Position numbers and translations under genes: made by a program
Shown: in pieces, positions 45,752 through 63,776 of the stretch
How the letters are laid out: each line of letters opens with the position of its first letter
Position numbering within the stretch: position 1 is the stretch's first letter
Notes under the pieces: model-generated
What the model was told of the DNA's origin: nothing
Databases searched by the model: none
The model's input: the letters and a program-made list of their open reading frames with translations, nothing else
Origin: Minisyncoccota bacterium
Lineage (GTDB): Bacteria; Patescibacteriota; Minisyncoccia; Minisyncoccales; JAGOPM01
Length of the DNA: 64,000 nucleotides
Reading direction: 5' to 3'
Assembly (NCBI GenBank): GCA_041651395.1
Contig: JBAZJI010000001.1
Span: 182,533 to 246,532 of the forward strand

Positions 45752-45778
45752 ATCATAATATAATTAAACAGACAAAAT

Positions 45779-46276: not shown

Positions 46277-46333
46277 TAAATAGTTAAAGGCCCTCGTGAA
46301 GCGGGGGCCTTTTGTGATGCCTTGGTTCTTTAA

Positions 46334-47112: not shown

Positions 47113-50100
47113 TTACTGTAATTCGGGCGGGTTAAAGTCCTTAAATGTTTTTCTTGAGATATCGTAAATTTCTCCAACCTCAGCTAGTTTGCTTAATGGG
47201 AACAGGATATAGGTTTGGTCCCCGGATAAGCCAGAAACATTTTGGCCGCAGCTATCACTTAACCTCCCATTGTAATTCTTATCAACGGCCGTGGTCAGGC
47301 GGAATAATTTGCGGGGGCTCTGGGGGGATGCAATCGAATCATTGCCAACTGCTTTAACCGAGTTTTTATCATATTCGTCCCAGCGGGAAATATTTACGTA
47401 GTGCGATGGATTGCCGTAGCAGCGCATAATTATCGGAATACCCCGGGAAGTAAACCTCTGGGTTTGCTCCCAATTAACAAATTGCCGGTCAGGGAATTTA
47501 TCGCCCATGCTGCTAGAGCCGGTAATCGGCATAAAGACCATGCCCAGATTTGTTTGGAAATCCTTAAAAATATTATGTTTGCCGCTTAAAGCCCAATCAA
47601 CGGAAAAAAGACCTTTACAGGTTAAGTAGCGCAAAACTTTATAAGTGGTTGGCTCATACTTTTCATAGCGCTCCTCGACGCTTAATTTGGAATCATCGAT
47701 TTTTTCGTATGGCTTCCAATCGTCATTACAGCTGTTGGTTTTGATGTCGTAAAAACAACCGCGAATGGCCAGATTATATTCCCGCTGCCAATTAGCGCGG
47801 AAGGAGTTGTCGTTGCGATACCAGTAGGCAAAAGACATGGAAAGCGCGCTATCGCCACAGCCGGCCGAGCCGACCACAGACATTCTATCTGTGGCATAAA
47901 GGCGGCGGCAGGAAGTGTATTGTCCGCTGGTTTGGGAGAATTGCGGCACGTCAGTCATAGAAATAATCGATTTGGGCTCTCCGCAATTCAGGCAGGAAAA
48001 AGTATTATTCCCAGTGCAGTCGGTGGCCACGCAAGCTTGCCATTTATAAAGGTAGCGGGAATATTTTTTCTTAACTTCGAGGTATTCATAAACCGGCAGG
48101 CCTTGATTCTTCATTTTTTCGGAAACATAATCTTCAAACGGATTATTAAGGGCATAATAGAACATTCCTTTTTCGGCCGGGACGGCAACCATGTGCTCGC
48201 GTTTGCGTAATCCCTGTGAGCAGGCAAACCGGGTATCAAAACTGATTGAGGGATCGTCTCCGGCCGGCTCTTCGGAGCAGATATTGAAGTAATATTTGGC
48301 TTGGGGATTGCCCTTACCCAGAGTTTTGGCCGCTCCAGAGAAGAGAATTTTTTGCCAGCTCATGGAGTAGGCTTTCAAAGTCAAAGCTTGCGGGGATTCG
48401 ATATTAAATTCTTTAGTTACGGGGAGGGAATATTTTTTGTCGCCGTATTTGCCCATATTCTCGGCAATCAGGGTGGCAAAAAATTTCTTTTTTCCGTCCA
48501 AGTGGTCATTGCCGATTAAAACTCCAAACAGGCTGCCCGATTTTTCAGCGCGTGAAAAGGTTACCCGGTGGGGATTTTTCTTAAAGAAAGGATCGTCTTT
48601 GGGGTTGAGCTTGGTATTAACCGGCTCGCCCTCCAGCCACCAATAGGCCCAGATAAGAGCGCCACTGCCGCCCTCATTAGTGGTGTTACCATCGGAAAGA
48701 AGTTGCCCGGTAACATTATAGGAAAAGGTTTTGCTATTGGCCGGATAGGTAATGTTTTTTATCCGGAAATCATCGGCTTCCAGCGTCGGCTTGGCAAATG
48801 ATGTTTTGAAGGGGATTATCTCTCCATAGGTTGTCCCCGCATTATTTGCGCCCACAGCCTGGACGCAATATTCCGTATCGGGCTTAAGCCCGTTTTGGGA
48901 ACCAAAATAGTAAAGCCCGTTGCGGGAGCCGGTCTTGGCTTCAAAAAATTGTTCTTTATCTTTAGCCTGGGGCTCGATGCTGCAATCGGCAAGGTAGAAT
49001 ATATCGCTTTTATCAGTGATATTTTCTACTGGCCGTTTTCTGGCTTCCCACACCCTAAACCAGGTCTTGAAGCTGCTATCATAAATATTTTGTTCGTCGA
49101 GTTTGGCTTCAAAACTGGCCGAGGTATCTTTGATAAAATTTAAGGCATTAAGCCCGCAAGGTTCGGGTTGGGATTTTCCAATAAAGGGGGTAAATTGGGT
49201 GTAATAATAGGGGAGGTAATTTTGCGGCGTGGAAGCGTCGGGCGGTACAAAAAATTTGCAGGTTTGGATTCTGGGCAGGCGCAAAGTTTTGAAGATACCG
49301 ACATTGGTTTTATCGGTATATTTATCCGTGGGCGAATTAGCCACCACCGAGCGGAAACAATATTGCCCGCCGCCCTCTTCAAGGGTGTCTACTACCACTC
49401 CGTAAGTTACTTTACCCGAATCTTTTTTCTGTTTGTAATAAAATATTTCGACAGCCTTATCCTGGAGTGACCTTATCTCTTCAGGATCAGGTATTTGTTT
49501 TTTATCGGTGCAGGGCCAATACTCAAACCAAGCTTTAACGGCATTGCGATTTCCACCTGAACTTATAATTTCCCCTTCCAGCCGGGCCTTGGTTGTCCCG
49601 ATACCTTCAGCCGACACGGTTTTGGATTGAAGGGGCAGAACCGCCTCCGAGCATTGATAACCGTCATAGGCTTTTTGTTCGGTGCGCCCTAAGTTTTGCG
49701 CTGCTGCCTTCCAGCAATATTTTTGATTGTATTCCACATCCAGATCAGTGGTAAAATATTGCCCGCCCGGCTCTGTTCTCAGGTCAATGGATTTTAGAAT
49801 TTTTGGGTTGGGTATGGGGCCTTGCCATTGGTTGCGCAGAGCATCTTGGTATTTGGCCCAGTAAAAATAAGTATAGCCTTTGCTGATACTGACGGTTTGG
49901 TCAAAGCGGAAAATTCGCCCGCCTAACCGGATTTTGTTTACTAATTCCGGGCTATCCGATCTTTTTAGATAGAAAAAGTCGGTGGACTCGTCATACACTT
50001 CGTTTTTCACCCAGTTTTGGCAATTTTCATCGCCTAAGGTGGTAAAGCACTGAGCATTTTTTTTATCAACCGAATAACCCCAATCCGTGTGAGCTAAGGC

Positions 50101-51195
50101 AAAAAAGCAGTAGGGGGTGCAGGGTTGAAGGCCGGTGATTTGGGCAAAATGTTTTCCCGCTTTAGTGAACTTGGGATTGGCCGCATAAGGAGTTTTTATG
50201 GTCGTGGAAACATTATCCTGGTCGTAGGCATTGTAATAATTAAACCAGGGCACGGCGCCACTCGGGTCATCCCCGGGGTCGACTATTTCCATGCTTAGAA
50301 CCGCACTATTTCTGGTAACTTTTTCCGCAGACAGAGTTTTTAACTTGGTGCGATAAAGAAAAACCGTTTGGCCGTTAATATCGCAAATGCTTTTACCGGA
50401 AAACCAACCGTTTTTATTCCATGCCGAGGCTTGATAGCAATAATTTTGCAGTGGGGGCAAGAAATTTTTAGTGGTATAAGAATAAATACTGTTATTCAGC
50501 ACCGGGGGAAGGTCGTCAGTGGATTTGTTCGGATCGATTCTGATAACGAGGCTGTTTTCCATACCATCGCGGACCAATGTTTCTCTGGGGAAAAGGTCCC
50601 AGGCGATGTAGGGTTCCTGCAAATCATTACCATTGCTGTAAAAGCTGGCGCGAAAAGTCGTATCACCCAAACTTTGGTTTTGGGTAGTGGCCTCGGTATT
50701 AATCATGGGCAGAAGTTTGGGAATTTCATCCCTGGGACAGATTGTAAATTCTGGGCTTGCATAAGCCAAATTTTTGGCTTTATCAAATACCCGCATTTTG
50801 CAGAAGCAGTTACGCGACACATCGGCATCTTGATAGGTGCGTGAATCCTGCGGCACAGTCCAAATACCGGTCATTTCTTTCTGGTTGGGCGTTTCACCTT
50901 CGGCTAATTGGGCGGGGGTAGAGCGTTGCCCGTAAGAAATGTATTCCTGTCCTGTATAGCCATAGGCCGAATAGCAAATGACGTCAAAAAACGGATAGTC
51001 GGCGGTTTTTCCAGAAGTTTCCTTCCAGTGAAATTCCAAATCCACTCCGCTGGGGAAAAACGTAAAATAGGGATCGTTAAAAGACGTCGAGCGGTTACCG
51101 AAAATTATTCGGGTCGCGAATTGGGCCGCTTGGGTATAACTGGCGGCAAAAGCAATCAGGAATACGCAAAAAAGAAAGACGAAAAATTTCTTCAT
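47113..51195 (-). CDS. giant secreted protein (about 1360 aa) with multiple FN3-like signatures and a Cys-rich C-terminal region
   Basis: Start set at the Met giving signal peptide MKKFFVFLFCVFLIAFAASYTQA (revcomp of 51193-51195). Repeated TxYCxxAxAxNxxG motifs (TEYCVQAVGANNAGTTYG, GQYCFRSVVANSP, YCWKAAAQNLG). C-terminal SVVGSAGCGDSALSMSFAYWY block. Confidence 0.7.
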   Translation of the reverse strand: MKKFFVFLFCVFLIAFAASYTQAAQFATRIIFGNRSTSFNDPYFTFFPSGVDLEFHWKETSGKTADYPFFDVICYSAYGYTGQEYISYGQRSTPAQLAEGETPNQKEMTGIWTVPQDSRTYQDADVSRNCFCKMRVFDKAKNLAYASPEFTICPRDEIPKLLPMINTEATTQNQSLGDTTFRASFYSNGNDLQEPYIAWDLFPRETLVRDGMENSLVIRIDPNKSTDDLPPVLNNSIYSYTTKNFLPPLQNYCYQASAWNKNGWFSGKSICDINGQTVFLYRTKLKTLSAEKVTRNSAVLSMEIVDPGDDPSGAVPWFNYYNAYDQDNVSTTIKTPYAANPKFTKAGKHFAQITGLQPCTPYCFFALAHTDWGYSVDKKNAQCFTTLGDENCQNWVKNEVYDESTDFFYLKRSDSPELVNKIRLGGRIFRFDQTVSISKGYTYFYWAKYQDALRNQWQGPIPNPKILKSIDLRTEPGGQYFTTDLDVEYNQKYCWKAAAQNLGRTEQKAYDGYQCSEAVLPLQSKTVSAEGIGTTKARLEGEIISSGGNRNAVKAWFEYWPCTDKKQIPDPEEIRSLQDKAVEIFYYKQKKDSGKVTYGVVVDTLEEGGGQYCFRSVVANSPTDKYTDKTNVGIFKTLRLPRIQTCKFFVPPDASTPQNYLPYYYTQFTPFIGKSQPEPCGLNALNFIKDTSASFEAKLDEQNIYDSSFKTWFRVWEARKRPVENITDKSDIFYLADCSIEPQAKDKEQFFEAKTGSRNGLYYFGSQNGLKPDTEYCVQAVGANNAGTTYGEIIPFKTSFAKPTLEADDFRIKNITYPANSKTFSYNVTGQLLSDGNTTNEGGSGALIWAYWWLEGEPVNTKLNPKDDPFFKKNPHRVTFSRAEKSGSLFGVLIGNDHLDGKKKFFATLIAENMGKYGDKKYSLPVTKEFNIESPQALTLKAYSMSWQKILFSGAAKTLGKGNPQAKYYFNICSEEPAGDDPSISFDTRFACSQGLRKREHMVAVPAEKGMFYYALNNPFEDYVSEKMKNQGLPVYEYLEVKKKYSRYLYKWQACVATDCTGNNTFSCLNCGEPKSIISMTDVPQFSQTSGQYTSCRRLYATDRMSVVGSAGCGDSALSMSFAYWYRNDNSFRANWQREYNLAIRGCFYDIKTNSCNDDWKPYEKIDDSKLSVEERYEKYEPTTYKVLRYLTCKGLFSVDWALSGKHNIFKDFQTNLGMVFMPITGSSSMGDKFPDRQFVNWEQTQRFTSRGIPIIMRCYGNPSHYVNISRWDEYDKNSVKAVGNDSIASPQSPRKLFRLTTAVDKNYNGRLSDSCGQNVSGLSGDQTYILFPLSKLAEVGEIYDISRKTFKDFNPPELQ

Positions 51196-51340
51196 ACTCG
51201 TCTTTATTCTATCCGAAAATTGCAAAAAGGGATGTGCAAAACTCCTTATTTTATAGAGTTAAAAAGGCTCTACTTTACAAATCAAAAATTTGTGATATAA
51301 TTAGGTAATTAACAAAAACATACGGAAAGGAGGGGATAAC

Positions 51341-52156
51341 ATGAAGAGCAGAAATTTCCTCGTTTTGGTGGTATTATTGGCGACATTTTCTTCTTTTGCC
51401 AACATACCTTGCCACGCGCAATGTTTGGACTATCAGTGGGAGTCGCGCATTTATCCGGGCTGCGACAATCTAAGGATTGATATTCGCGCCTACGATCTTA
51501 AGCAGAACCAGCAAGTCACATTCTTTGCTATTCTGCTGCGCAACCCCGGTTCGCCGGAATTTAATTTCCAGCGCGACCACAGAATGGTTTGCTTGGGCAC
51601 CATTAAGGCTATTGCAAATAAAACTGACGGCAAGCTTGTCCGCGCTTTAAGCGATATAATCTATGATTTAGAATATTCGTGTCGCGGCCGGAATGTAACT
51701 TACGGCCTCAGTCTGATTTGCGACAAAGAAGACCTCAAGTGCATTCCATCTTTAGCCAAGCAGTATTTTCGCGTTTTGCCCGACAAGCCAAGCAGCGCAA
51801 TCAGCAGCCCCAAGGATGGCACTAGATTCTTTCTCGGTTCTCCGATTTGCGTGAAATGGGATAGGAAGCTTTTTGCTCCCGAAACCAAGTTACGTATCTC
51901 TCTGAGAAAAATCTACACGGCCGATGCTTACGACGAATTGTTCGTTCTTGAGAATGAGGCAAATGATGGCCAAAGTGAGCTCTACGTTCCGCAGGATTTG
52001 GTGGAAAATGCCACCCATAATTTATTGGACATGGTTGGCAGTGACTATTGTTGGATCTTAATCCAGCAAGAAAATCGAGAAATCGTCAGTGACGGTTTAT
52101 TCTCCATCTTTAATCCCAACGAATCCCCGAATTTCGGTCCCAGACAGGATAAATAA
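51341..52156 (+). CDS. secreted hypothetical protein (signal peptide)
   Basis: MKSRNFLVLVVLLATFSSFANIPCHAQC N-terminus; RBS GGAAAGGAGGGG upstream. Confidence 0.5.
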   Translation: MKSRNFLVLVVLLATFSSFANIPCHAQCLDYQWESRIYPGCDNLRIDIRAYDLKQNQQVTFFAILLRNPGSPEFNFQRDHRMVCLGTIKAIANKTDGKLVRALSDIIYDLEYSCRGRNVTYGLSLICDKEDLKCIPSLAKQYFRVLPDKPSSAISSPKDGTRFFLGSPICVKWDRKLFAPETKLRISLRKIYTADAYDELFVLENEANDGQSELYVPQDLVENATHNLLDMVGSDYCWILIQQENREIVSDGLFSIFNPNESPNFGPRQDK

Positions 52157-52252
52157 ATAATTTAAGCCACCCAAAAGGGCGGCTCTTTAGTTTTTTAGGG
52201 GACAAAATAGCTTTGCCAAAGGGGAATTTTTTGTATAAAATACTGGCAAGCT

Positions 52253-52993
52253 ATGGAACAAAGCGTATTTTTGTCTGTCATCATTCCAGCCTACAATGAA
52301 GAAAAGAGATTACCCAAAACCTTGGAGTCGGTTTGCTCTTGGCTGGCCAGCCGCCCTTATAGCAGTGAGGTTATAGTGGTTTCTGATGGCTCCAAAGATA
52401 ATACGCAAAAAGTCGCCCGAGAATTTTGTGCCCGCTATCCTTTTTTACAAGTGTTACAATATTTACCTAATCGTGGTAAAGGTTATGCCACGCGCTTCGG
52501 AATGCAAAAAGCCCGCGGGCATTACCAAGTTTTTACCGATGCGGACAATTCCACCTCCATTGAACAATGGGAAAAAATGATCCCGGAATTCGAAAAAGGA
52601 TTTGAAGTGGTCATCGGCTCGCGCGATATTAAAGGCGCAATTTTAGATCCACCCCAACCACCTTGGAGGCGTTTTATCGGCAATGGTTTTAATTTGGGTA
52701 TTCAGATTTTGCTCGGGCTTTGGGGCATCTGGGATACACAGTGCGGCTTTAAGGGTTTTACCCAAAAAGCCTCGCAAGCGATTTTTCCAAAAGCCCGGAT
52801 TGATCGTTTTGCTTTTGATCCGGAAATTTTATTATTGGCGCGCAAAAATAAATTCAAAATAAAAGAGATTCCTGTGCATTGGATAAATGATGCGGACAGC
52901 CGCGTCAAAGGAAAAACGGTTTTAGAAATGCTCAAAGACGCTTTTCGTATTAAAATTAACGACCTAACCGGGAAATATGAAAGCCAAAATTGA
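52253..52993 (+). CDS. family 2 glycosyltransferase (polyprenyl-phosphate sugar transferase-like)
   Basis: VIIPAYNEEKRLPKTLESV…VIVVSDGSKDNT…FTDADNS are the GT2 DxD/Rossmann blocks. Confidence 0.75.
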   Translation: MEQSVFLSVIIPAYNEEKRLPKTLESVCSWLASRPYSSEVIVVSDGSKDNTQKVAREFCARYPFLQVLQYLPNRGKGYATRFGMQKARGHYQVFTDADNSTSIEQWEKMIPEFEKGFEVVIGSRDIKGAILDPPQPPWRRFIGNGFNLGIQILLGLWGIWDTQCGFKGFTQKASQAIFPKARIDRFAFDPEILLLARKNKFKIKEIPVHWINDADSRVKGKTVLEMLKDAFRIKINDLTGKYESQN

Positions 52994-54029
52994 AAAACCG
53001 CAAATCATCAATTCAGAATTACGCCGCGACTTGATAAGCAAGGATTCGGTAGTAATTTCCAGAACCCGCAACCGCCAGCCGCAAGATTATCGGCATAAGA
53101 GCAAGCCGTTTTTTACTCCCAAATCCAAATGCCCTTTTGAAAATCTGGGGAAATCCGGTCAGCATCCGCCGGTTTTGGCGATTCATAACGGGCAGCGTTT
53201 GTCGCTTAACGGGGTTTTTCCGGCCCAGTGGAGCACGGTAATTATTCCCAATAAATTTCCGATTTTATCTCCGGTTGAAAAAATGGAAATAAAAATCCAA
53301 GGCCAGTTTTACGAAACGATTACCGCCTCGGGGTTTTGCGAGCTAGTCATCAGCAAAGACCATAAACCGCGATTTCATCAGCTTGAGGTCGGGCAAATAA
53401 AAGAGATGATTGATGCCTACCAATGGCGCTATTTGGAATTGATGGATAAGAAATTCGTCAGCTATATCTCTATTTTTCATAATTGCGGCAAGGAAGCGGC
53501 AGCTTCACAGAGTCATAACCATAGCCAGATAATCACTTCACCGTTGGTGGACAAAGATTTGGCGCGGGCTTTAGCTAATGCCCGCGAATACGAGCAACGG
53601 CATAATGCTTGCCCTTATTGCGATATGCGGGTTTTTGACAAGCAGGAAGGCCGCCGGCTGATTTTTGAAAATGAACATTTTATGGTGGTAGCGCCTTTTG
53701 CCTCGAAAAGCGAATTTGAGATGATTATCACCCCTAAAAGACATTCGCCTAATTTCGAAGAGGTAACCGAAGAAGAAAAATTAGCCTTGGCTCAAGCCTT
53801 CAAAAAGACTTTGACGGCTTTAGAAAAAGCTCTCAATGGCCCGGATTATAATTTTTATTTGCACACTTCGCCTTGCGATAATGCAAAATCTTATCCATAC
53901 TATCATTGGCATTTCACTATTTTACCCGTGGTGAAAAAGATCGGGGGATTTGAATTGTCCACCAAGCTCGATGTTAATACTATCGAGCCGGAGATTGCCG
54001 CCCAATTTATCAAAAAATACTTAAAATGA
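52977..54029 (+). CDS. GalT-like HIT-superfamily nucleotidyltransferase (galactose-1-phosphate uridylyltransferase family)
   Basis: HxHxQ active-site-like SHNHSQII and CPYCD…EHFMVVAPFASKSEFEMIITPKRH. Overlaps GT2 by 17 nt and tpiA by 4 nt, so operon-coupled. Confidence 0.5.
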   Translation: MKAKIEKPQIINSELRRDLISKDSVVISRTRNRQPQDYRHKSKPFFTPKSKCPFENLGKSGQHPPVLAIHNGQRLSLNGVFPAQWSTVIIPNKFPILSPVEKMEIKIQGQFYETITASGFCELVISKDHKPRFHQLEVGQIKEMIDAYQWRYLELMDKKFVSYISIFHNCGKEAAASQSHNHSQIITSPLVDKDLARALANAREYEQRHNACPYCDMRVFDKQEGRRLIFENEHFMVVAPFASKSEFEMIITPKRHSPNFEEVTEEEKLALAQAFKKTLTALEKALNGPDYNFYLHTSPCDNAKSYPYYHWHFTILPVVKKIGGFELSTKLDVNTIEPEIAAQFIKKYLK

Positions 54030-54781
54030 AAAAAATCGTTATCGCGAATTGGAAATGCTTCCCGGAAACCAAACAGGAGGCCCAAACCATTCTTAAACAG
54101 CTTAATCCCTCCTGCAAAGGGCTGAAAAATACTTCCGTGACCGTTTGTCTGCCTTTTCCATTTCTGCAATTAGCCTGCAATTTCAAACAGCCCAGTATCT
54201 CCTTTGGCGCCCAAAATTGTTTTTGGCTGCCTTTTGGCGCTTATACCGGGGAGGTTTCCGCTTCACAGTTGGCAACCACGGGCGTGCAATATGTAATCTT
54301 GGGCCATTCAGAAAGGCGGCAACATTTTAACGAGCCTAATGATATCATCAATAAAAAAATCAAACTCTGTTTGGAAAATAAAATGAAGGCCGTGCTTTGC
54401 GTTGGCGAATCTTTCGAGGATAGGCAGCTTAAAAGAGAGAACGCCATTATCCGCGGCCAAATTTTGCAAGGGCTAAAAGATTTTGGGCCCAAAGAAATGG
54501 TAAATTTGTGTATTGCCTATGAACCGGTTTGGGCCATTGGCAGCGGCAAGCCCTGCTCAAGTGAAGATGCCAAAAACATGGCCACTTATATCAAGGGCCT
54601 GATGTATGAAGTTTTCGGCGCTAAAGAGTTTCCGGTTATTTATGGCGGCTCGGTTAATTCTGGCAATGCCAAGGATTATATTACTAACGGCAATATGGAC
54701 GGGCTTTTAGTGGGGCGCGCTTCCTTGGATTGGCAGGAGTTTGTTAATATTATTTTATCAATCGAAAAGAATAAGGCATGA
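54026..54781 (+). CDS. tpiA: triosephosphate isomerase
   Basis: IANWKC…ILGHSERR…CVGES…AYEPVWAIGSG…YGGSV are canonical TIM motifs. Confidence 0.85.
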   Translation: MKKIVIANWKCFPETKQEAQTILKQLNPSCKGLKNTSVTVCLPFPFLQLACNFKQPSISFGAQNCFWLPFGAYTGEVSASQLATTGVQYVILGHSERRQHFNEPNDIINKKIKLCLENKMKAVLCVGESFEDRQLKRENAIIRGQILQGLKDFGPKEMVNLCIAYEPVWAIGSGKPCSSEDAKNMATYIKGLMYEVFGAKEFPVIYGGSVNSGNAKDYITNGNMDGLLVGRASLDWQEFVNIILSIEKNKA

Positions 54782-56583
54782 CATCAAAGGAGCTTAGGCA
54801 AAAATTTATTAATTTTTTCGAAAAAAATGGGCATAAGCAAGTGCCCTCCAGTTCTTTGCTGCCAAGTGACCCCTCGGTTTTATTTACCACGGCGGGCATG
54901 CAACAATTTGTGGACTATTTAGCCGGATACAAAGATCCCCTGAACAAATTCGGCTCGCGCCATTTATGTTCAGTGCAAAAGTGTTTCCGTACTAATGATA
55001 TTGAAGAGATAGGCGATGATACCCATCACACATTTTTTGAAATGTTGGGTAACTGGAGTATTGGCACGGACGAAAACGGGCAATACTTTAAGGAGGTGGC
55101 CATCAAATACGCTTTGGAATTTTTGCAGAGCTTAGGTTTCAAAAAAGATAAAATGTGGGCCACGATTTATCAGGGAGATAGCGTCATTGCCAAAGATGAT
55201 GAGGCTAGAGATATTTGGATTAAAAACGGCATACCAGAGGAGCGCATTTTGCCTTGCGGGAGCGATAATTTTTGGGGGCCAACGGCTGCCACCGGACCCT
55301 GCGGCCCTTGCTCGGAAATCCATTATGACCGCGGAGCGGAGTTTGGCTGCTCTTCGGCTGATTGTAAGCCAAATTGCCCTAACTGCAAACGTTTTGTGGA
55401 GATTTGGAATTTGGTCTTCATGCAGTATTCCAAAAATGAAAAAGGCGAATTCGAAAAATTGCCGCAAACCAATGTGGATACGGGTTCGGGTTTAGAAAGA
55501 GTGCTGACTATCCTTAATGGCACACCTTCAGCTTTTGAAAGTGATTTATTTTTGCCTTTAATCGAGGAATTGGAAAAGATTTCCGAAAAAAAATATAGTG
55601 AGGCGCAATTTGCCTATCGGGTTATCGTCGATCATTTGCGCGGGGCTTGTTTTTTGGTAGCGGATGGTTTTAAGCCGGATAAAATCGGGCAGGGTTATGT
55701 TTTGCGCCGGCTCATCAGACGCGCTATCAGGCAGGCAAGAATTATCGGCTCGCAAGAAATTTTTGTGTCGCTTTTAGCGCAAAAAATAGTAACCCAATAT
55801 GGAGAAATTTATCCCGAGCTTGCCCGGGCCCAAAGCGGGATAATAAAAATTTTAACAGAGGAACAGGAAAAATTCGGTAAGGCTTTGGAAAATGGCTTAA
55901 AAATTTTGGATAAAAAATATCCCAAAACAGAAAAGGGCGGAATCATCAGTGGCGTCGATGCGTTTGATTTATACCAGACCTATGGTTTCCCTTGGGAAAT
56001 GATTGCGGAGGAAGCGGCCTCGCGCGGTTATACTTTAGATAAGGCGGGTTTTCAAAATACCCAATCTCAACATGTGGAAATTTCTCGCGCGGGCGCGGCC
56101 AAGCTTTTTGGCGGCCATGGGGCCAATGAAGTGCAAGATGAACAGTCCAAAGAAAAGATTACCAAGCTCCATACGGCCACGCACATTTTACAAGCGGCTT
56201 TGCGCCAAGTATTGGGGGAGGGCGTCAAGCAAATGGGGTCAAATATTGATGCTACAAGGTTGCGCTTTGATTTTTCTTTTGAACGCAAGATGTCCCCTGA
56301 AGAGATAAAGAGGACACAGGACATCGTTAATGAGCAAATCCAAAAAAATCTTATCGTGACCAAGGAGGAAATGGACTATATGAAGGCCATGGAATCGGGC
56401 GCTTTGGCCTTTTTTAAGGAAAAATATCCCGATAAGGTTAATGTTTATTCGATAGGGGACTTTTCCAAAGAGCTTTGCGGCGGCCCGCATGTGGACTGTA
56501 CCGGGAAGCTTGGAAAATTCAAAATTATCAAGGAGGAATCGGTGGCCGCTGGGGTCAGAAGGATTAAGGCTACGCTGGAATGA
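54778..56583 (+). CDS. alaS: alanine--tRNA ligase, short form (catalytic + editing domains, no C-Ala domain)
   Basis: FTTAGMQQF…FRTNDIEEIGDDTHHTFFEMLGNWSIG (class II AlaRS). Editing HTATHIL…CGGPH. 601 aa versus about 870 in full-length enzymes. Confidence 0.8.
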   Translation: MTSKELRQKFINFFEKNGHKQVPSSSLLPSDPSVLFTTAGMQQFVDYLAGYKDPLNKFGSRHLCSVQKCFRTNDIEEIGDDTHHTFFEMLGNWSIGTDENGQYFKEVAIKYALEFLQSLGFKKDKMWATIYQGDSVIAKDDEARDIWIKNGIPEERILPCGSDNFWGPTAATGPCGPCSEIHYDRGAEFGCSSADCKPNCPNCKRFVEIWNLVFMQYSKNEKGEFEKLPQTNVDTGSGLERVLTILNGTPSAFESDLFLPLIEELEKISEKKYSEAQFAYRVIVDHLRGACFLVADGFKPDKIGQGYVLRRLIRRAIRQARIIGSQEIFVSLLAQKIVTQYGEIYPELARAQSGIIKILTEEQEKFGKALENGLKILDKKYPKTEKGGIISGVDAFDLYQTYGFPWEMIAEEAASRGYTLDKAGFQNTQSQHVEISRAGAAKLFGGHGANEVQDEQSKEKITKLHTATHILQAALRQVLGEGVKQMGSNIDATRLRFDFSFERKMSPEEIKRTQDIVNEQIQKNLIVTKEEMDYMKAMESGALAFFKEKYPDKVNVYSIGDFSKELCGGPHVDCTGKLGKFKIIKEESVAAGVRRIKATLE

Positions 56584-56759
56584 GGACAAGGGACACTAAA
56601 AGCGGTCAATTTGACAAAAATTAATAATATTTCGTAATCAAAATCCCCCTTGACAGGGGGCTTGATTTGTGTGGGCAATCGTGCATATAATGCGCAAAAG
56701 TAGATAATTTAACCCCCGGCCAAAAGCCGGCGGAGTTTGCACAAAATAATAAAAAAAAT

Positions 56760-59700
56760 ATGAAAACCACAAAATTATTTTTGGTTTTTATCCTCGGTTT
56801 TGCCCTTGTAGCAGGTATGGCAATTCCTAATGGATATGCAAGTGCGCTCACAACCCAAGAGAAGTTAAGTCTCGTGGACCGCTTGAATGCTTTAAGCTCT
56901 ACCCAGCTTAAAAGCGTAATTGATTCCTTAAACGGTGGGCCAGCCCCCATTGATTCTAAGTCAATGCAATTGGCCATTGAGCTTTCCATGCTCTCGCAAA
57001 GCGAATTGACCGAAGTGGTCAAGCTTATCGGGACTTATGGCAGCGGCTCAACTTATTCGGGATCCAATTATGATCCGTATGGCGATAGTTATTATGGTGA
57101 TTCCTCGATGAGTATTAGTCTCTCTTCGAATTACTACAATCAGACTGTTGATTCTTCCTCTCAAAAAGAGATTGGCACCATCAATGCCTATGCTTATGGT
57201 TCCGCCCTTAATATCAACAGGATAGTTTTGAAATTCAACAAAGATATTTCCAGCGACCTTTCCAATGTCGCCCTTTTTGTAAATGGAAGCCAAGTGGCCG
57301 TAAAGCAATCATACTCGGTGACTGAATATGGCAGCAATGATTGGCGGCTTTCTTTCGATAGTTTATCTATTCCGGTTTCCAAAAATAGCTCCAAGTCTAT
57401 TACAGTCAAGGCACAGGCCAAGGAACTTTCCAGCTATAGCACTGGAAAAACTTTCCAATTCCAAATTCCTAATAGCGGCGTGCGCGCGAGCGAATCATAT
57501 TATTCGTCCAATTATGTCTATGGCGGCTCCACTTCTTGGCTGACTTTTTACACCGCTTCCAGCTATGGTAGCGGCAGCGGCAATGGCAGTTATCCTTCCT
57601 ATGGATATTTCAGTGTGGATAAAAATGCTAATGGCGGCACCAATTACATCGGCGCCAACGACGAGGAAGAGGTAGCTTGCTATAAGATTACGGCTCCGGC
57701 CCAAAATTTGAGGGTTAATCGGGTTGATTTCATGTTTAATAACGATTACACCAATGAAATCAAATGGCTCGCCTTGATCGACAAAAGCGAGAGTACTATT
57801 TTGGATTCAGGCACTTTTGGGGAAAGGACTTATGTAAGTTCTGGTCAGTACCAATATCGTTTCTCTGGATTTTCCCTCAACATTCCCGCCTATCAGACCA
57901 AAGAAGTTTGTTTGAAAATCCGCACCGGTGCCATCTCTTATGATAAATATGTCACTTATTCCATGCCTTCGCAGGGTGTTTTGGCGGTCGATGATTATGC
58001 GCAGACCAGATACGCGGCCGATACCACGGCCAACTACCTGACCATATCTTCGGGCTATGGTAACAATGATGATGGCAGCGGCAATTACAGCAATGGCGAA
58101 GCCAAAATCGTTGTAACCAATTCCACGATTAAGCGCACCTATGGCAGCTCTTATTCGGGATATTATGGTGAGGGCTCAATGACTGTGGCTGTTACAGCCG
58201 GCCGTTATGATGTGACTATTGCGCGCAATGATGGTAGCAGTAAGGGTTTTGTGGTCAGCTTGCTTTCCGAGAATGGCTCGCAAGCCGCTTCCAATTCTAC
58301 TTATCAGTGGCTCGGCCCGACCCAGACCGCGGATTATTACGATCACCATATTTCCGCTTACCAGACAAAATACTTTACCATTAACTTTAAGATTTACCCG
58401 AATTTTGGCGGTAATTATTATGCCAAGTTAAACGGCCTCTATTATACTGAGAATTATGCCACGCGTTACAGCTCGGCATATTTCAAGACCGAGAGCGTTT
58501 ATTTGGGCGAGGGCAGCGGCACTTACCCGCCTTCCAATAATAATGATGCCAGTATCAATGCTTATTTTCACAGCGCCACGGCTGACGGCAGTGTTTACAC
58601 TGATGCCAATGGCTATTCCTGCTATAGTAATTGCAGCTCAGGTTGCCTGCCCGGAAATTATAATTTGAAAGTTTCCGTTTCGGCTGTGGGCGGCGATGCC
58701 TTTTTCTGCGCTGATGAGCGCTGCGTGACTCCCTCTTTTGTGGGTGAAATTACCAGCCAATATGGCAGCACTCTTCCCTCATTTACGACCAAGATTGAAA
58801 GCAGCAATGCCGAAGAAACGACAGTTTACGAATCTCAGCTTAATGGCTACCAATATTTTTGGCAGGGTTATCCTTTGAAGTTTTATGTTGTCAGGCAAGG
58901 AACCAACCGCACTTTCAATATCAAGCTTAGCCGGGTGCAAATCGGCAACAATCAGAGCGGTTATTATTTGGCGAGAATCAAGAGCATTAATTGGTATTCC
59001 AGCGGCTTTGGTTCTTTGAAGCAATACAGCGGCAATTTGAGCAGTTTCAAGACCGAAACTACGCTTTTGAGCGCTTGTAATAATGGCGGCGGTTCCGGCT
59101 ATGGTTATTGCGGAGACGGAATCTGCAACAATAATGAAACTTATTACAGCTGTTCTACTGATTGCTCCAGCAATAGCCAGGGCAATGTTAATGTTTCCCT
59201 TTACTACACGCCAAGCGAGGTGACAGTGAAAACCAATGATTATGACAGGCAAGTGGTTTGTCACAAAATTACTACGGATTACAACAGCTTAACGGTTCAA
59301 AAAATCGCTTACAAATTTAACAGCGATGTTTATCCGAGCTTTTCCACCTTCGCCATTATGGATGGCAGCTCCAGGCTCGCCACCCAAAATGCTTCTAATC
59401 GACAGAGTGATTATTATGGCGGCTACAGCCTCGCCTTTGAGGGACTCAATATTTATATTCCGAGCAATTCCTCTAAGATTGTTTGCTTGGCGGCTACGCC
59501 CCAGCAAGATTATGGCTACAGCAGCAGTAAAACCTTTAATGTTTCTTTAGCGCAAAACGGTGTCCGGGCGACTACTAATTATAGTCAGACGGTTTTTGGC
59601 ACTGATTCGAGCAATAGGACCTTTTATCTCTCGCAAGGCTATCAAAGCTCGCCCATCACTATGGCACTTTCTACCAGCGATTATACTCGCGACCAGAATA

Positions 59701-61310
59701 TCAATTCCTACAAGACCTATGATGTTGTTTTGGGCAATGTGGAATTCAAGAGCAACCAAAGCGCTTATCTTACCGGTGTCAGGGGTAAATTAGTTGCCAC
59801 TTTACCGGTCACTGATTATTATCGCAGCGCCAATGATATTGCCTCTACTGTTTCTATTTGGGATAGTTATAGCCGTTTAGCCACTGCTTATGTTAACGAG
59901 GATGGCACTTTTGCCTTCACTGGTTTTTATGCCAATATTTACGGCAGCAGCTATCCGAAAACTTTAACTATCAAAGCCGATATCAATGCCAATACCTATG
60001 GCCAAGCTTATAATGGGGATCAAATTTATTTTGTCATCGACAGCCAAGATGTGACTGCGGATCGCGGCGTGGAAATTGCGCGCGTAATCTCTAAGACAGT
60101 TACCCTCAGGGGCAGTTATAATGGCGGCGGTTCAGGCTATGGTTATTGCGGAGACGGAATCTGCAACAATGGAGAAAGTTATTACACCTGCTACCGCGAT
60201 TGCTCTGGCTCTAGTTATGGCTATTGTGGAGATGGAATCTGTAATAACAATGAAACTTATTATTCTTGCTATTCGGATTGCTATAATAGCGGCTCCAGTG
60301 GTTATTATAATTTCACGGTTTCCATGGAATCCACGCCTCGTATCACTGTGGATAGGAGCACAACCGGCAAAGAAACAGCCAAGGCTACTTTTTCGCTCAA
60401 GCTCACTGCCCCAATGTATCAAACCATTTGGGTGCCAGCTGACAGTATTGAGGGCAACGCTATCAATAATTCCGACGGCTCTTCACCGGTTACCTACAAG
60501 ACTGTTACTTGCTCGGGCACTAGAGATACCAATAATTCCAGCCTTTACATTTTGCAGCCCAACCAGAGCATGATTTGCACTATCAACTTTGAGATTAGGC
60601 CGCAATCTTCGGGCAACCATTATGCCTATTTGACCGCGCTTAAGTATCGCACTAGTTTGACTGGCTCTGACACTAATTACATCACTTCCGATTTGCAGAA
60701 TACCTATAAGACCTCCCAAGTTTATCTCAATGCCATTGTGGGGGGCGGCACCAATTACGGCACGCCCACGATTATCCCGGCTTCCTTAACCTACAGCTCA
60801 GGCGACAATACTTTATACATGTCGGCCAATATCACCAATATCGGTTATTCGGCTGTGACTGAATACGGCTTCTCGCTCTACAAGCAAACTCAAGGCTATT
60901 CGGCCCGCCAGCTTATTGCCGAGATTGCCACAGTCAATTATCCGCAGTTAGTAGTGGCAACAAAGCGCAGCCCGGATCCCAATACGGTTTACTGTATCCG
61001 CGCCTATGCCAAAAATTCTTACGGTGAGTATGTTTCCCAGTCCTATGATGATAAGTGTATCACTACCGGCAACACGAGCGGCTCAGGCTCGGGCAGTGGT
61101 AGTGGTTCAGGCAGCGGCAGCACCCAGGGTTATGAGTGCCATCGTGGGGTAAAGATTTATACTAATGCCACGAGGCCCTATACCTATGGTGTAGGTTCTA
61201 GTAATAAAACCACTTGGGCTGAATATGTGGATTTAGCCAGTGCCAAGGATTTTATTAATACTATTATCAGCACGGCTCCGAGCATGGTTGATACTACGCA
61301 ATGTAATTAA
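56760..61310 (+). CDS. giant secreted low-complexity (S/Y/G/N/T-rich) protein (1516 aa) with CGDGICNN-ETYYSC-xDC modules
   Basis: Signal peptide MKTTKLFLVFILGFALVAGMAIPNGYASA. Four GGGSGYGYCGDGICNNNETYYSCSTDCS-type modules. (GS)n linker GNTSGSGSGSGSGSGSGST near the C-terminus. Confidence 0.7.
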   Translation: MKTTKLFLVFILGFALVAGMAIPNGYASALTTQEKLSLVDRLNALSSTQLKSVIDSLNGGPAPIDSKSMQLAIELSMLSQSELTEVVKLIGTYGSGSTYSGSNYDPYGDSYYGDSSMSISLSSNYYNQTVDSSSQKEIGTINAYAYGSALNINRIVLKFNKDISSDLSNVALFVNGSQVAVKQSYSVTEYGSNDWRLSFDSLSIPVSKNSSKSITVKAQAKELSSYSTGKTFQFQIPNSGVRASESYYSSNYVYGGSTSWLTFYTASSYGSGSGNGSYPSYGYFSVDKNANGGTNYIGANDEEEVACYKITAPAQNLRVNRVDFMFNNDYTNEIKWLALIDKSESTILDSGTFGERTYVSSGQYQYRFSGFSLNIPAYQTKEVCLKIRTGAISYDKYVTYSMPSQGVLAVDDYAQTRYAADTTANYLTISSGYGNNDDGSGNYSNGEAKIVVTNSTIKRTYGSSYSGYYGEGSMTVAVTAGRYDVTIARNDGSSKGFVVSLLSENGSQAASNSTYQWLGPTQTADYYDHHISAYQTKYFTINFKIYPNFGGNYYAKLNGLYYTENYATRYSSAYFKTESVYLGEGSGTYPPSNNNDASINAYFHSATADGSVYTDANGYSCYSNCSSGCLPGNYNLKVSVSAVGGDAFFCADERCVTPSFVGEITSQYGSTLPSFTTKIESSNAEETTVYESQLNGYQYFWQGYPLKFYVVRQGTNRTFNIKLSRVQIGNNQSGYYLARIKSINWYSSGFGSLKQYSGNLSSFKTETTLLSACNNGGGSGYGYCGDGICNNNETYYSCSTDCSSNSQGNVNVSLYYTPSEVTVKTNDYDRQVVCHKITTDYNSLTVQKIAYKFNSDVYPSFSTFAIMDGSSRLATQNASNRQSDYYGGYSLAFEGLNIYIPSNSSKIVCLAATPQQDYGYSSSKTFNVSLAQNGVRATTNYSQTVFGTDSSNRTFYLSQGYQSSPITMALSTSDYTRDQNINSYKTYDVVLGNVEFKSNQSAYLTGVRGKLVATLPVTDYYRSANDIASTVSIWDSYSRLATAYVNEDGTFAFTGFYANIYGSSYPKTLTIKADINANTYGQAYNGDQIYFVIDSQDVTADRGVEIARVISKTVTLRGSYNGGGSGYGYCGDGICNNGESYYTCYRDCSGSSYGYCGDGICNNNETYYSCYSDCYNSGSSGYYNFTVSMESTPRITVDRSTTGKETAKATFSLKLTAPMYQTIWVPADSIEGNAINNSDGSSPVTYKTVTCSGTRDTNNSSLYILQPNQSMICTINFEIRPQSSGNHYAYLTALKYRTSLTGSDTNYITSDLQNTYKTSQVYLNAIVGGGTNYGTPTIIPASLTYSSGDNTLYMSANITNIGYSAVTEYGFSLYKQTQGYSARQLIAEIATVNYPQLVVATKRSPDPNTVYCIRAYAKNSYGEYVSQSYDDKCITTGNTSGSGSGSGSGSGSGSTQGYECHRGVKIYTNATRPYTYGVGSSNKTTWAEYVDLASAKDFINTIISTAPSMVDTTQCN
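59085..60290 (+). repeat. three ~80-bp DNA repeats (about 85-90% identical) encoding CGDGICNN-E-YY-C-DC modules (59085-59170, 60123-60205, 60221-60290)
   Basis: ggcggcggttc(c/a)ggctatggttattgcggagacggaatctgcaacaat… read twice, plus a third more diverged copy. Confidence 0.6.
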
Positions 61311-61377
61311 ACTAACACCCCGCGAAAGCGGGGTGTTTTTGTAATCAAAGGTATTTGCTATAATAGAAATGATGTTT

Positions 61378-62370
61378 ATGAAAAAAATTATTTTAGCAGT
61401 CGCGATGCTTCTGGCGGCACAGGGAGCCATGGCTGCAGATATGAGAGTGGAAACAATCAAACAAACCGTGCCTGAAATAAAAGGGGAAGTAGAAGTTCAG
61501 GCCGGCTGTTTCAAAGTCACGGCACCGGGGCAAACCGGATTTTATATCAATAAAATCCAACTTTATTCGCCTAAAGATCCGGGGCAATATTTTTCCTCCA
61601 TCAAACTTGTTTCTAATCTCAATGGCAAACAGGTTATTTTAGGAGAATTGGCCGGCACTGATGCCGACAAAATTAAAGATAATGATTTCCGGCTGAATTT
61701 TCCCAAAATGTCTTTGCCCGTAGCCAGAGGCCAATACAAAAATGTCTGCATCATAGTTAAGGGTCTGCCCAATGTAACCAGTGATACAGAATTCAGTTTT
61801 ACGGTTTTGAAAAACGGCTTGCGCTCAATCGATGCCAAGAAAAAATCAGCCTACTCCAGCAAGCAATTAAGCTTTATTAAAATCAAGGTCAAAGCGGTTA
61901 AGGCGTCCATCCAGCCCTCAAATGGCTCAACCTCCACTAGCACGCCTTCGGCCGCGCCGTTTTACACGCTTAATTCCGACATCAAGATTAACCACAATTT
62001 AGCCGTAAGCGACACGGCTGATGCCACCATCCAGATACAGTTAAGTCCTAAGGGCGGGGATATTTATATTCCTACAAGCGGGGCAGTTTTGGCCCGAGGC
62101 ATGCGCAATGATTTTACCGAGACTACCTCTACTTTTTCCTATACGGTCAATGCCGATTTGCAGGGAAGCAATTATATTATCCGCAATGGCGATACCAAAT
62201 ACATTTCCGTGGCCATGCATATCGAGCCCAATAATACCGGCTACTTTTATGGCGAAGTCTATTCCATCGGTTGGAAGAATACTCCTGAGAGCGCCACCCT
62301 TAACCTAATGGATTATCCGGATATCGGACAACAATACCGGACAGCCACTGTTTATTTGATTAAACGTTAA
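61378..62370 (+). CDS. secreted hypothetical protein (signal peptide MKKIILAVAMLLAAQGAMA)
   Basis: ORF 61369-62370. Internal ATG 61378 gives a canonical signal peptide. Confidence 0.5.
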   Translation: MKKIILAVAMLLAAQGAMAADMRVETIKQTVPEIKGEVEVQAGCFKVTAPGQTGFYINKIQLYSPKDPGQYFSSIKLVSNLNGKQVILGELAGTDADKIKDNDFRLNFPKMSLPVARGQYKNVCIIVKGLPNVTSDTEFSFTVLKNGLRSIDAKKKSAYSSKQLSFIKIKVKAVKASIQPSNGSTSTSTPSAAPFYTLNSDIKINHNLAVSDTADATIQIQLSPKGGDIYIPTSGAVLARGMRNDFTETTSTFSYTVNADLQGSNYIIRNGDTKYISVAMHIEPNNTGYFYGEVYSIGWKNTPESATLNLMDYPDIGQQYRTATVYLIKR

Positions 62371-62476
62371 ATTGTCCCCAGCCACCTGCGATTTCCACAG
62401 GTGGCTTTTTGGTTAAAGAGGGCTATAATAAGTTTGCACCGGAATACACGGGGCAATTTTTCGCATTCGATTCGAT

Positions 62477-63730
62477 ATGGATAAAAAAAGAATTTTTGAC
62501 GTTGTTGTTCCGCAAAAAAAGATGCAGAACAAAAATATTTACAGAGTTCAATTAGAAACTTATAACACCCGGCCGCGGCGCGACCATGGGGCGCCGGGCG
62601 GGCTTTTGGTTTTTCTGTTTTTGGCCCTATCTTGCTTTTTAGTTTACTGGTTTTGGGAGCCCACGGCCCAAATAACCATGGTTATCTCCCCAGAGCGAGC
62701 CCAAAAAGAAATCGAGATTAAGGCCATTAAAAACACTTCCACAACCGACCTGAATAATCGGACTATCGCTCTTTACCAGCTAAGCGATCAATACACCCTG
62801 ACGCAGGATTTTCCGGCTACGCAAGCAGAGATAAACGACAAAGCCAAGGGCACTATCCGGATTTTTAATGAAACCGACAGCACTAAAACTTTTGTAACCG
62901 GGACACAGTTTTTAGCCGACAGCAATTTGATGTTTTCTATTGTCCAAAGGGTGACTATCCCGGCAGCCACCAGCGACGGTGGGAAATTGGTGCCCGGCAC
63001 CCTCGACGTTACGGCAGAGGCGGCCAAGCCGGGCGTGGAGTATAATATCGGCCCTTCGGTTTTTTCTATTCCCAAATTAAAAACCACTTCTTATTTTTCT
63101 AAAATCTACGCCAAATCTTTTGCGAACATGGCAGGCGGTTTTGTGGGCACGGGGTTAAAAGCCACTCCCGAAGATATCACCCAAGCCGACGATTTTATGT
63201 CGCGGGAAATTTTCAAAAAGGCCAAAGACACAATAGTGCAAAAATATTCCGAGCATAAAATTTTAGACACCACTTTTGAGCAAAGGGTCATGGCAACTTC
63301 GAGCAAGCTCGATCCCAATTCCAAAGAAAAAATGTTCACATACGAAATTAAAGTAGAAACGATTGTTCTGGCCACCAAGAAAAGTGATTTAGAATTTTTA
63401 GCTAAAAAAGCTTTGGGAGGGGAGCTAAAACAAGGCCAGATAATCGCCGAAAAGCTCTTTAATTATAAGATAATTTCCGAAAATGCCGATACGCAAAAAG
63501 GCCAAGCTTGGATAAGGGTAGAGGGCGCGGCTCCTTATTATTATCCGCCAAATTTTGAGCTCATAAAAACCGAAATTGCAGGCAAGCCCATAAGTCAAGT
63601 GCAAGGTATTATTGAGCCTATGTACCCGGGAAAGGTAAGCGAAATAAGGGTAAATTTGAACCCTCCCATTAAAGATAAGCTGCCCCAGGATATCCAAAAA
63701 ATCACCACAGTCCTGCAAGGGGTTGACTAA
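62477..63730 (+). CDS. membrane-anchored hypothetical protein (one N-terminal TM, large extracytoplasmic domain)
   Basis: GGLLVFLFLALSCFLVYWFW TM after a basic N-terminus; 417 aa. Confidence 0.5.
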   Translation: MDKKRIFDVVVPQKKMQNKNIYRVQLETYNTRPRRDHGAPGGLLVFLFLALSCFLVYWFWEPTAQITMVISPERAQKEIEIKAIKNTSTTDLNNRTIALYQLSDQYTLTQDFPATQAEINDKAKGTIRIFNETDSTKTFVTGTQFLADSNLMFSIVQRVTIPAATSDGGKLVPGTLDVTAEAAKPGVEYNIGPSVFSIPKLKTTSYFSKIYAKSFANMAGGFVGTGLKATPEDITQADDFMSREIFKKAKDTIVQKYSEHKILDTTFEQRVMATSSKLDPNSKEKMFTYEIKVETIVLATKKSDLEFLAKKALGGELKQGQIIAEKLFNYKIISENADTQKGQAWIRVEGAAPYYYPPNFELIKTEIAGKPISQVQGIIEPMYPGKVSEIRVNLNPPIKDKLPQDIQKITTVLQGVD

Positions 63731-63776
63731 TCGCGTTCTTTTTGCTACATTAATAACGCTTATCACTACAACCTAA

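Follow-up and report, generated by a model that had tools for sequence, protein, structure and literature searches.

A tyrosine-rich giant protein of a Candidate Phyla Radiation bacterium, probably an elongated surface fibre of immunoglobulin-like domains and four-cysteine modules

Bacteria of the Candidate Phyla Radiation (CPR, or Patescibacteria) rely on physical contact with their hosts, and their envelope proteins are almost entirely uncharacterised. CPR cells lack an outer membrane, bear a periodic surface layer visible by cryogenic transmission electron microscopy (cryo-TEM), and attach to host cells (PMC7906910). Here we examine a 64,000-nucleotide stretch of a Minisyncoccota contig (JBAZJI010000001.1, positions 182,533 to 246,532; “the window”), and within it an open reading frame (ORF) of 1516 codons whose product, for ease of description, we will call the giant. 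The described proteins with which it invites comparison are an uncharacterised family of peptidoglycan (PG)-binding CPR wall proteins, the fibrillar adhesins, the Periscope proteins, and the S-layer proteins built of immunoglobulin (Ig)-like domains. With moderate confidence, we regard the giant as a Sec-exported, disulfide-stabilised, elongated cell-surface protein of Paceibacterota (CPR), most likely a fibre. The evidence for this reading consists of a signal peptide, predicted Ig-like domains, an even and conserved complement of cysteines, and domain homology to the wall-associated CPR family. The initial annotation of this DNA had suggested an S-layer or glycosylated fibre protein; the secreted surface fibre survives from that suggestion, but the S-layer assignment drew no positive evidence and glycosylation at sequons found no support.

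The relation to the CPR wall-protein family is the most informative of these comparisons. An A-domain profile searched with HMMER against 1.84 billion cluster representatives (E ≤ 1e-3) returned 433 proteins, most of them 600–680 residues long, and a central family member used as query returned 643 relatives. Those that carry a name go by “peptidoglycan-binding domain-containing protein” and come from Minisyncoccales, Pacebacteria and Parcubacteria. Many have an N-terminal PG_binding_1 domain (PF01471), the only part of the family that a profile search of PDB sequences matched, and local profile scans give A-(A)-B, with B at the C-terminus, as the usual architecture. The canonical layout, about 630 residues in all, is signal peptide, coiled coil, PG_binding_1, A, A, B. 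In the giant, residues 117–583 keep the A-A-B order, following a signal peptide and a helical segment (residues 29–92) that sits where relatives have the coiled coil and PG_binding_1; like the family, the giant is low in charge and high in Ser and Thr. Its three A domains match a 118-sequence family profile with hhalign probabilities of 98–98.6 % (E 1e-13 to 1e-15), and its three B domains match the family B profile at 93–95 %. A1, A2, A3 and a neighbouring 333-residue ORF are mutually related (hhalign probability 89–98 %), and the large A and B domains are about 20–28 % identical among themselves.

The giant departs from the family in several respects. It runs 933 residues past B1, whereas canonical B domains end 0–2 residues from the C-terminus in about half of 50 representatives and up to 77 residues from it in the others. 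It contains four-cysteine modules, which occur in 2 of 151 sampled family representatives, and its Tyr content is 3.5-fold higher. Residues 29–116 gave no Pfam match at E ≤ 10 and nothing above 30 % in hhalign against the family N-terminal profile; because both searches were negative, we rejected the idea that the helical region is a degenerate PG_binding_1 domain. The full layout is signal peptide, helical region, A, A and B, and then B, one module, A, a beta-rich “A4”, two modules, B, an FN3-like domain, (GS)7 and a 60-residue tail, comprising some nine beta-sandwich domains with the two CPR-specific types among them (Table 1). Judged by these profile matches, the giant consists of a canonical A-A-B unit, a second unit of rearranged order behind it, and a C-terminal end of distinct character. 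It is best explained as a lineage-specific offshoot of the CPR wall proteins that has been roughly duplicated and extended. Neither A nor B domains match curated families in Pfam, NCBIfam or PDB sequence searches, so that the comparison delineates two uncurated Ig-like families common to hundreds of Paceibacterota and Parcubacteria wall proteins.

Structure prediction bears on the fold of the first half of the protein. An AlphaFold2 model of residues 1–583, made with a 119-sequence alignment, has a mean predicted local distance difference test (pLDDT) score of 77.7. It shows a helix at residues 2–21 that overlaps the hydrophobic core of the signal peptide, four helices within residues 32–91 and three all-beta domains thereafter, with pLDDT below 50 at the linkers (residues 92–112, 271–285 and 428–446). 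Searched against the PDB with Foldseek, this model matches tandem Ig-like arrays (E 1e-8 to 1e-4), including integrin alpha thigh and calf domains, the MG domains of alpha2-macroglobulin, and the Gram-positive adhesins and pilins AspA, Srr1, ClfB and BcpA, and the A and B domains are thus predicted to be Ig-like in fold. Against viral models, the same program returned tail-fibre and minor-tail proteins with multi-Ig/FN3 arrays (E values to 1e-9), which would fit an origin of the giant as a prophage-derived tail fibre or receptor-binding protein. We consider such an origin extremely improbable. The viral matches are to generic beta-sandwich arrays with TM-scores of 0.1–0.2; the gene lies between alaS and infA-rpsM-rpsK with synteny conserved in three genomes; no phage genes are adjacent; and the giant's domains belong to a chromosomal CPR family. 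Domains in residues 584–1516 were assigned by homology. The strands of A4 appear in a low-confidence single-sequence model, as does one helix in the tail, a sequence that turned up solely in orthologs of the giant. The best Pfam fn3-type match to residues 1335–1437 is PF09294 at E 0.09 and 13.5 bits, below the cut-off of 21, and we use “FN3-like” as a description rather than as family membership. Matches of the (GS)7 tract were to engineered GS linkers and Serglycin only, and we judged them artefacts; whole-protein matches in Pfam, NCBIfam and PDB sequences (Serglycin, engineered linkers, antibody frameworks) were likewise rejected as products of the GS tract.

The distribution of cysteines agrees with export. 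The giant has 28, all conserved in an ortholog of 72 % identity, and their number per domain is even: two in A2, six in B2, four in each module, and two each in A3, B3, the FN3-like domain and the tail. This is the pattern expected for intradomain disulfides of an exported protein.

In composition the giant stands apart from its neighbours. Ser (14.0 %), Tyr (9.7 %), Thr (9.3 %), Gly (9.0 %) and Asn (7.7 %) predominate, as the initial annotation had recognised, with Asp, Glu, Lys and Arg together at 14.4 % and a pI of 5.4; Tyr makes up 1.4–6.4 % of the other ORFs of at least 200 residues, so that among the 30 window ORFs compared the giant is an outlier. The annotation was also right that a Gly-Ser tract precedes a C-terminal tail. 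Its description of the protein as low-complexity does not hold, however. An entropy scan (below 2.8 bits per 30 residues) picks out only residues of about 90–126, 254–283 and 1425–1464, about 7 % of the protein, and the remaining 93 % or so is folded-domain sequence of biased composition. Nor are the supposed long charge-free stretches exceptional, since the longest, of 41 residues (246–286), compares with 37 ± 7.6 in composition shuffles. The motifs YGSGS, SYYG and NYS, said to dominate, occur two, one and two times; the short motifs that are enriched are YGS (7 versus 1.9 expected) and GSG (13 versus 1.7 expected). Finally, the NxS/T sequons that had been called abundant number 30, against 26.8 ± 4.4 in shuffles, and 14 of the 30 are kept in the 72 % ortholog, against about 50 % expected. 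We therefore rejected N-glycosylation at sequons as a hypothesis for the giant, as these sites are neither enriched nor preferentially conserved.

A second building block of the giant is a small four-cysteine module. Small disulfide-rich extracellular spacers of EGF-like, TIL or knottin type, and the cysteine-rich repeat of Myxococcus, are known. The module resembles these in its size of about 20–26 residues and in having four invariant Cys along with a conserved Gly, Glu and Asp, in the pattern CG[DN]GxC-x3-E-x4-C-x2-DC, singly or in tandem up to 19 in secreted proteins. It differs in that searches of Pfam, NCBIfam and PDB sequences gave it no significant match, not even with a 19-copy array as query, and literature searches for the CGDGxC motif gave no relevant paper. 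The four CGDGICNN modules initially counted in the giant are in fact three, starting at residues 784, 1130 and 1156. That they are encoded by DNA repeats is correct: a repeat family (D1) covers 59077–59186, 60115–60224 (81 %) and 60193–60302 (62 %). The supposed single block at 59085–60290 resolves into two arrays, of one and two units, about 1 kb apart. C5, G6, C10, E14, C19, D22 and C23 are invariant in sixteen copies, taken from three alleles of the giant and from two further giants in the window; the consensus is xYGYCGDGICNNxETYYSCYxDC. A pattern scan of metagenomes gave at least 599 matches, and tblastn confirmed 140 of them; among the 80 loci kept, host ORFs have 1–19 copies with the consensus CGDGxC[ND]xGE[T]xxSCPxDC. 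These hosts form a varied set of secreted or anchored proteins; one of them, L020, has PG_binding_1 and fn3 domains. We read the module as a putative extracellular spacer mini-domain, widespread and uncurated, and present in many metagenomic surface proteins.

Two other alleles of the giant were recovered, giving three for comparison, and these speak to both function and length. One, from the metagenome-assembled genome (MAG) CAZQSQ01, shares 97 % identity with the window allele at the protein level and about 92 % at the DNA level; its sequence is divided between two contigs with a 55-nt overlap. The other (P0001; 1584 residues, 72–77 % identical) comes from two Logan assemblies (L001 and L002). 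Between window and MAG, dN/dS is 0.043 overall, 0.013 for the FN3-like domain, which is the most constrained folded domain, 0 for the tail, which shows no amino-acid change, and 0.137 for the linkers; the overall value indicates a constrained, functional coding sequence under strong purifying selection. The prediction that the repeats would vary in length is borne out, as the three alleles differ in length solely by whole modules and by GS and SY linker units. Module counts (array 1 + array 2) are 1+2 in the window, 3+2 in the MAG allele and 3+3 in P0001; the Gly-Ser tract is (GS)7, (GS)10 and a degenerate G[ST/N] tract, respectively; and linker 1 of P0001 is shorter by 10 residues. Between the window and the 97 % allele, all indels fall in a linker or a module array (MAG relative to window: +4 residues at 103, −2 at 269, +50 in array 1, and +6 in the GS tract). 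The array-1 difference is exactly 153 nt, in frame, with its junction in the conserved CGDGIC-coding core; the left side of the single window unit matches MAG module 1 and its right side MAG module 3. The closest pair of units (85 % DNA identity) joins window array 2 to array 1 of the ortholog, the longest exact repeat of the MAG gene (40 nt) links its two arrays, and apparent dS is 1.03 in the modules against 0.15–0.65 in other domains. Together, the cross-array similarity, the 40-nt repeat and the high module dS point to exchange between arrays.

It might be asked whether these module numbers, or even the ORF itself, are artefacts of repeat misassembly. The window derives from a short-read metagenome assembly and is identical to contig k141_1056181 of ENA ERZ27247363 along the 19.2 kb that the two share. 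The closely related MAG breaks exactly inside array 1, and array 1 of the window is two units short of both relatives. We nevertheless think an artefact very unlikely. No exact repeat in the window gene exceeds 36 nt, well under both typical read length and a final k of 141 (MEGAHIT; inferred from the contig name k141_...), and this makes collapse at the module arrays unlikely. In addition, the array-1 indel is precisely in frame, the ORF is intact over 4.5 kb with a dN/dS of 0.04, and three independent assemblies are collinear over the remainder of the gene.

This variation recalls the Periscope proteins, in which, as in the giant, the number of extracellular units differs between strains (PMC8201768, PMC9704523), which would alter the distance to which the protein end projects. 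Periscope stalks consist of long arrays of highly identical folded domains, with high DNA identity driving recombination (PMC8201768). The giant, by contrast, varies by a 26-residue module present at 1–3 per array, with DNA identities of 56–85 %. It is likewise comparable to fibrillar adhesins (PMC8286594, PMC9210967), which are also long and secreted, with a tandem Ig-like stalk and a distinct terminal region, and its structural neighbours include AspA, Srr1, ClfB and the BcpA pilin. Unlike the catalogued adhesins, the giant has no known stalk, adhesive or anchor Pfam domain, its stalk domains are diverged (about 20–28 % identity) rather than near-identical, and flexible linkers and cysteine mini-modules intervene between them. 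Its tip, the FN3-like domain and tail, has no match to known adhesive domains and is distinct and highly conserved.

Taken as a surface fibre, the giant could work as follows. Since the relatives bind PG at their N-terminus, that of the giant would by analogy remain close to the wall or membrane. A beads-on-a-string body would project the conserved FN3-like domain and tail outward on the flexible GS tether, with the small disulfide modules serving as rigid spacers. Recombination between the diverged 78-nt repeats would add or remove modules and so tune the reach of the fibre. The Tyr-rich surface and the tail could contact a host cell, a glycan or neighbouring envelope proteins; the organism is probably episymbiotic, and the host attachment and surface layer of CPR cells make a role in host contact or in the envelope plausible. 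A modular Ig-domain surface protein is a familiar kind of protein overall. What sets this one apart is that its parts are uncurated in databases, that strain-level length variation is confined to spacers, and that its domain surfaces are unusually decorated with Tyr. These parts offer handles for domain curation, metaproteomics and binding studies.

Several observations weigh against the fibre. First, no recognised anchor was found, whether PG_binding_1, a sortase-type signal or a transmembrane C-terminus, so that attachment and orientation are assumed. Second, domain searches and Foldseek identified no known adhesive or ligand-binding domain. Third, the Foldseek matches in the PDB are generic, with TM-scores of 0.1–0.25, values that are low because the query has several domains whose relative orientation is free. 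Fourth, residues 584–1516 have no reliable model, a single-sequence AlphaFold run on residues 798–1516 giving a pLDDT of 35. Fifth, because module units are 56–85 % identical in DNA and arrays hold 1–3 of them, copy number probably changes slowly and does not act as a rapid switch. Finally, each of the three alleles was taken from a short-read metagenome assembly, and in one case the assembly breaks inside array 1.

An alternative is that the giant forms or attaches to an S-layer, its Ig-like domains tiling a two-dimensional array and its linkers and modules serving as a stalk. A survey using signal peptide, anchor, multiple Ig-like domains and structure prediction as criteria reports new S-layer protein classes in Patescibacteria (Paceibacterales) (10.1101/2024.05.28.596244). 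The giant resembles the Ig-domain S-layer proteins of that survey in being large, secreted and acidic with many Ig-like domains; a periodic layer is seen on CPR cells by cryo-TEM (PMC7906910), and the gene is flanked by a promoter-like site and a strong terminator of its own. It differs from such proteins in its many Cys, its disordered linkers, its strain-level length variation and its lack of a detected anchor: Pfam and profile searches found no wall-anchoring domain (SLH, PG-binding or similar). Its 28 Cys and several disordered linkers would be unusual for a lattice-forming protein. Length differences between 97 %-identical strains could be tolerated by a stalk, less easily by a lattice, and codon adaptation is intermediate (0.70 against 0.73–0.78 for translation genes). 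The widespread, uniform paralogs of about 630 residues seem better candidates than the lineage-restricted giant, for which only two other alleles were found, and the main text of the preprint has no accession that ties its candidates to the A/B family (10.1101/2024.05.28.596244). We consider an S-layer role unlikely.

The loci of the family's canonical members bring in a further possibility. The paralogs of about 630 residues lie in a cassette of a DeoR-like helix-turn-helix protein, an extracytoplasmic function (ECF) sigma factor, DUF5667, the PG_binding_1-A-A-B protein, a Wzy_C/TPR membrane protein and a protein of about 565 residues whose C-terminal region is PG_binding-like (loci L086, L087, L089 and L090, the contexts of P0160, P0216, P0009 and P0237). 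ECF sigma and DUF5667 are present in all three loci with upstream sequence and Wzy_C in three of four canonical loci; polysaccharide flippase and UDP-sugar genes are found close by. Among the proteins covered by Wzy_C are O-antigen ligases and protein O-oligosaccharyltransferases, and the Ser/Thr-rich family may by analogy be glycosylated or glycan-linked. This cassette, with its polysaccharide-synthesis genes, fits envelope maintenance, and so would be in keeping with the giant as a passive envelope scaffold or spacer without a ligand, a Tyr-rich hydrophilic coat that makes the wall thicker or shields it, perhaps from phage or from enzymes of the host. The failure to find an adhesive domain in the giant and the spread of its compositional bias over the whole surface, rather than one site, point the same way. 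However, the cassette families (ECF sigma, DUF5667, Wzy_C) are absent among the window ORFs tested, that is, at the giant's own locus, and the strongest conservation falls on the FN3-like domain and tail (dN/dS 0.013 and 0). Such conservation at the end of a dedicated flexible tether suggests a specific interaction, and we consider a purely passive role improbable.

The tyrosines themselves call for comment beyond the fibre model. In 262 family sequences the median Tyr content is 2.8 % and the maximum 6.25 %, against 9.7 % in the giant and 10.9 % in its ortholog. Low charge, by contrast, is typical of the family (median 15.8 % charged residues), and is not distinctive of the giant. Within A1-A2-B1, 26 of 44 Tyr occupy positions that are polar in the family and five occupy hydrophobic-core positions; at family-polar positions the frequency of Tyr is 10.2 % in the giant and 1.5 % in the family, which places the enrichment mostly on the predicted surface. 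The linkers are built of Gly, Ser, Tyr and Asn. Surface Tyr together with these linkers is the most unusual property of the giant. One could imagine that surface Tyr and [G/S]-Y-[G/S] linkers form aromatic or hydrogen-bond networks or dityrosine bonds, yielding a self-associating or cross-linkable “sticky” coat or fibre, and that the four-cysteine unit is a widespread, uncurated extracellular mini-domain family of CPR and other uncultivated microbes, a length-adjustable rigid spacer that possibly binds metal. We give these two proposals little credence. If the first is true, the giant would be a bacterial counterpart of Tyr-rich structural proteins, with which an episymbiont could glue itself to its host. 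In two unrelated metagenome proteins (L019 and L076), a Tyr-rich low-complexity N-terminal stretch (e.g. YYPTYSTYYPYYYNGGYNYYNTGYAYNTG) stands with 8–9 four-cysteine modules and a C-terminal membrane helix as read from the sequence; Tyr-rich sequence and four-cysteine modules may co-occur more generally.

Table 1. Features of the giant gene and its immediate flanks (coordinates are those of the window; residue numbers are those of the giant).
Feature	Coordinates	Strand	Remarks
Hairpin following alaS	56645-56660		
Promoter-like site	56662..56691	+	TTGATT-18-TATAAT; upstream of the giant; consensus scan only
Giant ORF	56760..61310	+	1516 aa
Sec-type signal peptide	56760..56843	+	aa 1-28; MKTTK / hydrophobic 6-21 / YASA; read from sequence
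N-terminal helical region	56844..57035	+	aa 29-92; four predicted helices, pLDDT 75-82
Linker 1, S/Y/G/D	57036..57107	+	aa 93-116; predicted disordered
A domain copy 1 (A1)	57108..57554	+	aa 117-265; hhalign 98 % to family A profile; pLDDT >90
Linker 2, S/Y/G	57555..57608	+	aa 266-283; predicted disordered; 2-aa indel between alleles
A domain copy 2 (A2)	57609..58049	+	aa 284-430; conserved Cys307/Cys384; pLDDT ~90
Linker 3, G/N/D/S	58050..58100	+	aa 431-447; predicted disordered
B domain copy 1 (B1)	58101..58508	+	aa 448-583; hhalign 93 % to family B profile; pLDDT 75-93
B domain copy 2 (B2), divergent	58554..59075	+	aa 599-772; five Cys plus Cys773; hhalign 95 %
Module array 1, one unit	59100..59177	+	YGYCGDGICNNNETYYSCSTDCSSNS; 78 nt, 26 aa
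A domain copy 3 (A3)	59175..59630	+	aa 806-957; Cys834/Cys909; hhalign 98.6 %
Beta-rich “A4”	59631..60113	+	aa 958-1118; hhalign 44 % to family second A, weak match
Module array 2, two units	60138..60293	+	60138-60215 and 60216-60293; 78 nt each
B domain copy 3 (B3)	60309..60731	+	aa 1184-1324; Cys1251/Cys1273; hhalign 93 %
FN3-like beta domain	60762..61070	+	aa 1335-1437; Cys1412/Cys1433
(GS)7 linker	61080..61121	+	aa 1441-1454
C-terminal 60-aa tail domain	61128..61307	+	bracketed by Cys1460 and Cys1515
Intrinsic-terminator-like hairpin and T run	61314..61337	+	10-bp stem, 7 GC pairs; 4 nt past stop
Secreted 333-aa paralog	61369..62370	+	one A domain, one B domain; synteny kept across all three genomes

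The gene call in the source record begins at a TTG at codon 8 (56781), giving 1509 residues. We prefer the ATG at 56760, since a start at the TTG cuts into the signal peptide's positively charged n-region. No obvious Shine-Dalgarno sequence precedes this ATG; the leader is A-rich (AAAATAATAAAAAAAAT ATG) and is itself preceded by a small hairpin (CCGGCCAAAAGCCGG). The number of promoter-like sites in the region is near the shuffle expectation. The promoter-like site and the strong terminator suggest that the giant may be its own transcription unit. Its codon adaptation index is 0.697, compared with 0.73–0.78 for EF-Tu, EF-G and ribosomal proteins and 0.56–0.735 for other ORFs.

The giant lies in a stretch of about 18 kb (45752–63776) with genes for surface proteins and sugar metabolism. 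This insertion is bounded by map (ending at 45751) and infA (just past 63730) and interrupts the normally contiguous string secY-adk-map | infA-rpsM-rpsK-rpsD-rpoA-rplQ. It comprises an LTD-like ORF, a minus-strand giant of 1370 residues, GT2, GalT, tpiA, alaS, the giant described here, its A-B paralog and a 417-residue membrane protein. The 72 %-identical relative has a comparable insertion between map and infA, with an extra VWA-domain protein between the giant and the A-B paralog (2185 residues, L001 14891–21448; 2167 residues, L002 14945–21448). Neither the window nor the 97 % MAG allele has this VWA-domain giant, which amounts to a presence/absence polymorphism of a second giant surface gene. 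The two MAG contigs (CAZQSQ010000016.1 and CAZQSQ010000003.1; L003 and L004) overlap inside module array 1 and can be joined, and the MAG is 92–93 % identical to the window in DNA over 15 kb. It is labelled “uncultured Candidatus Saccharibacteria bacterium”, whereas the source of the window is labelled “Candidatus Paceibacterota”; one of the labels is probably wrong.

Elsewhere in the window, two more giants, at 4156–12570 (2804 residues) and 12567–16976 (1469 residues), overlap by 4 nt and reuse parts of the giant; neither matches Pfam or NCBIfam. The larger has three four-cysteine modules (8950–9018, 9592–9648 and 9652–9708) and one A domain (residues of about 1361–1492, E 3.5e-5), and the smaller has one module (12924–12980) and a B domain near its C-terminus (residues of about 1276–1402, E 1.6e-4). 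An ORF of 330 residues at 24188–25180, with a hydrophobic N-terminal segment, 4.8 % Cys and sub-threshold Pfam matches to EGF-like domains and antifungal peptides, may be another small disulfide-rich exported protein.

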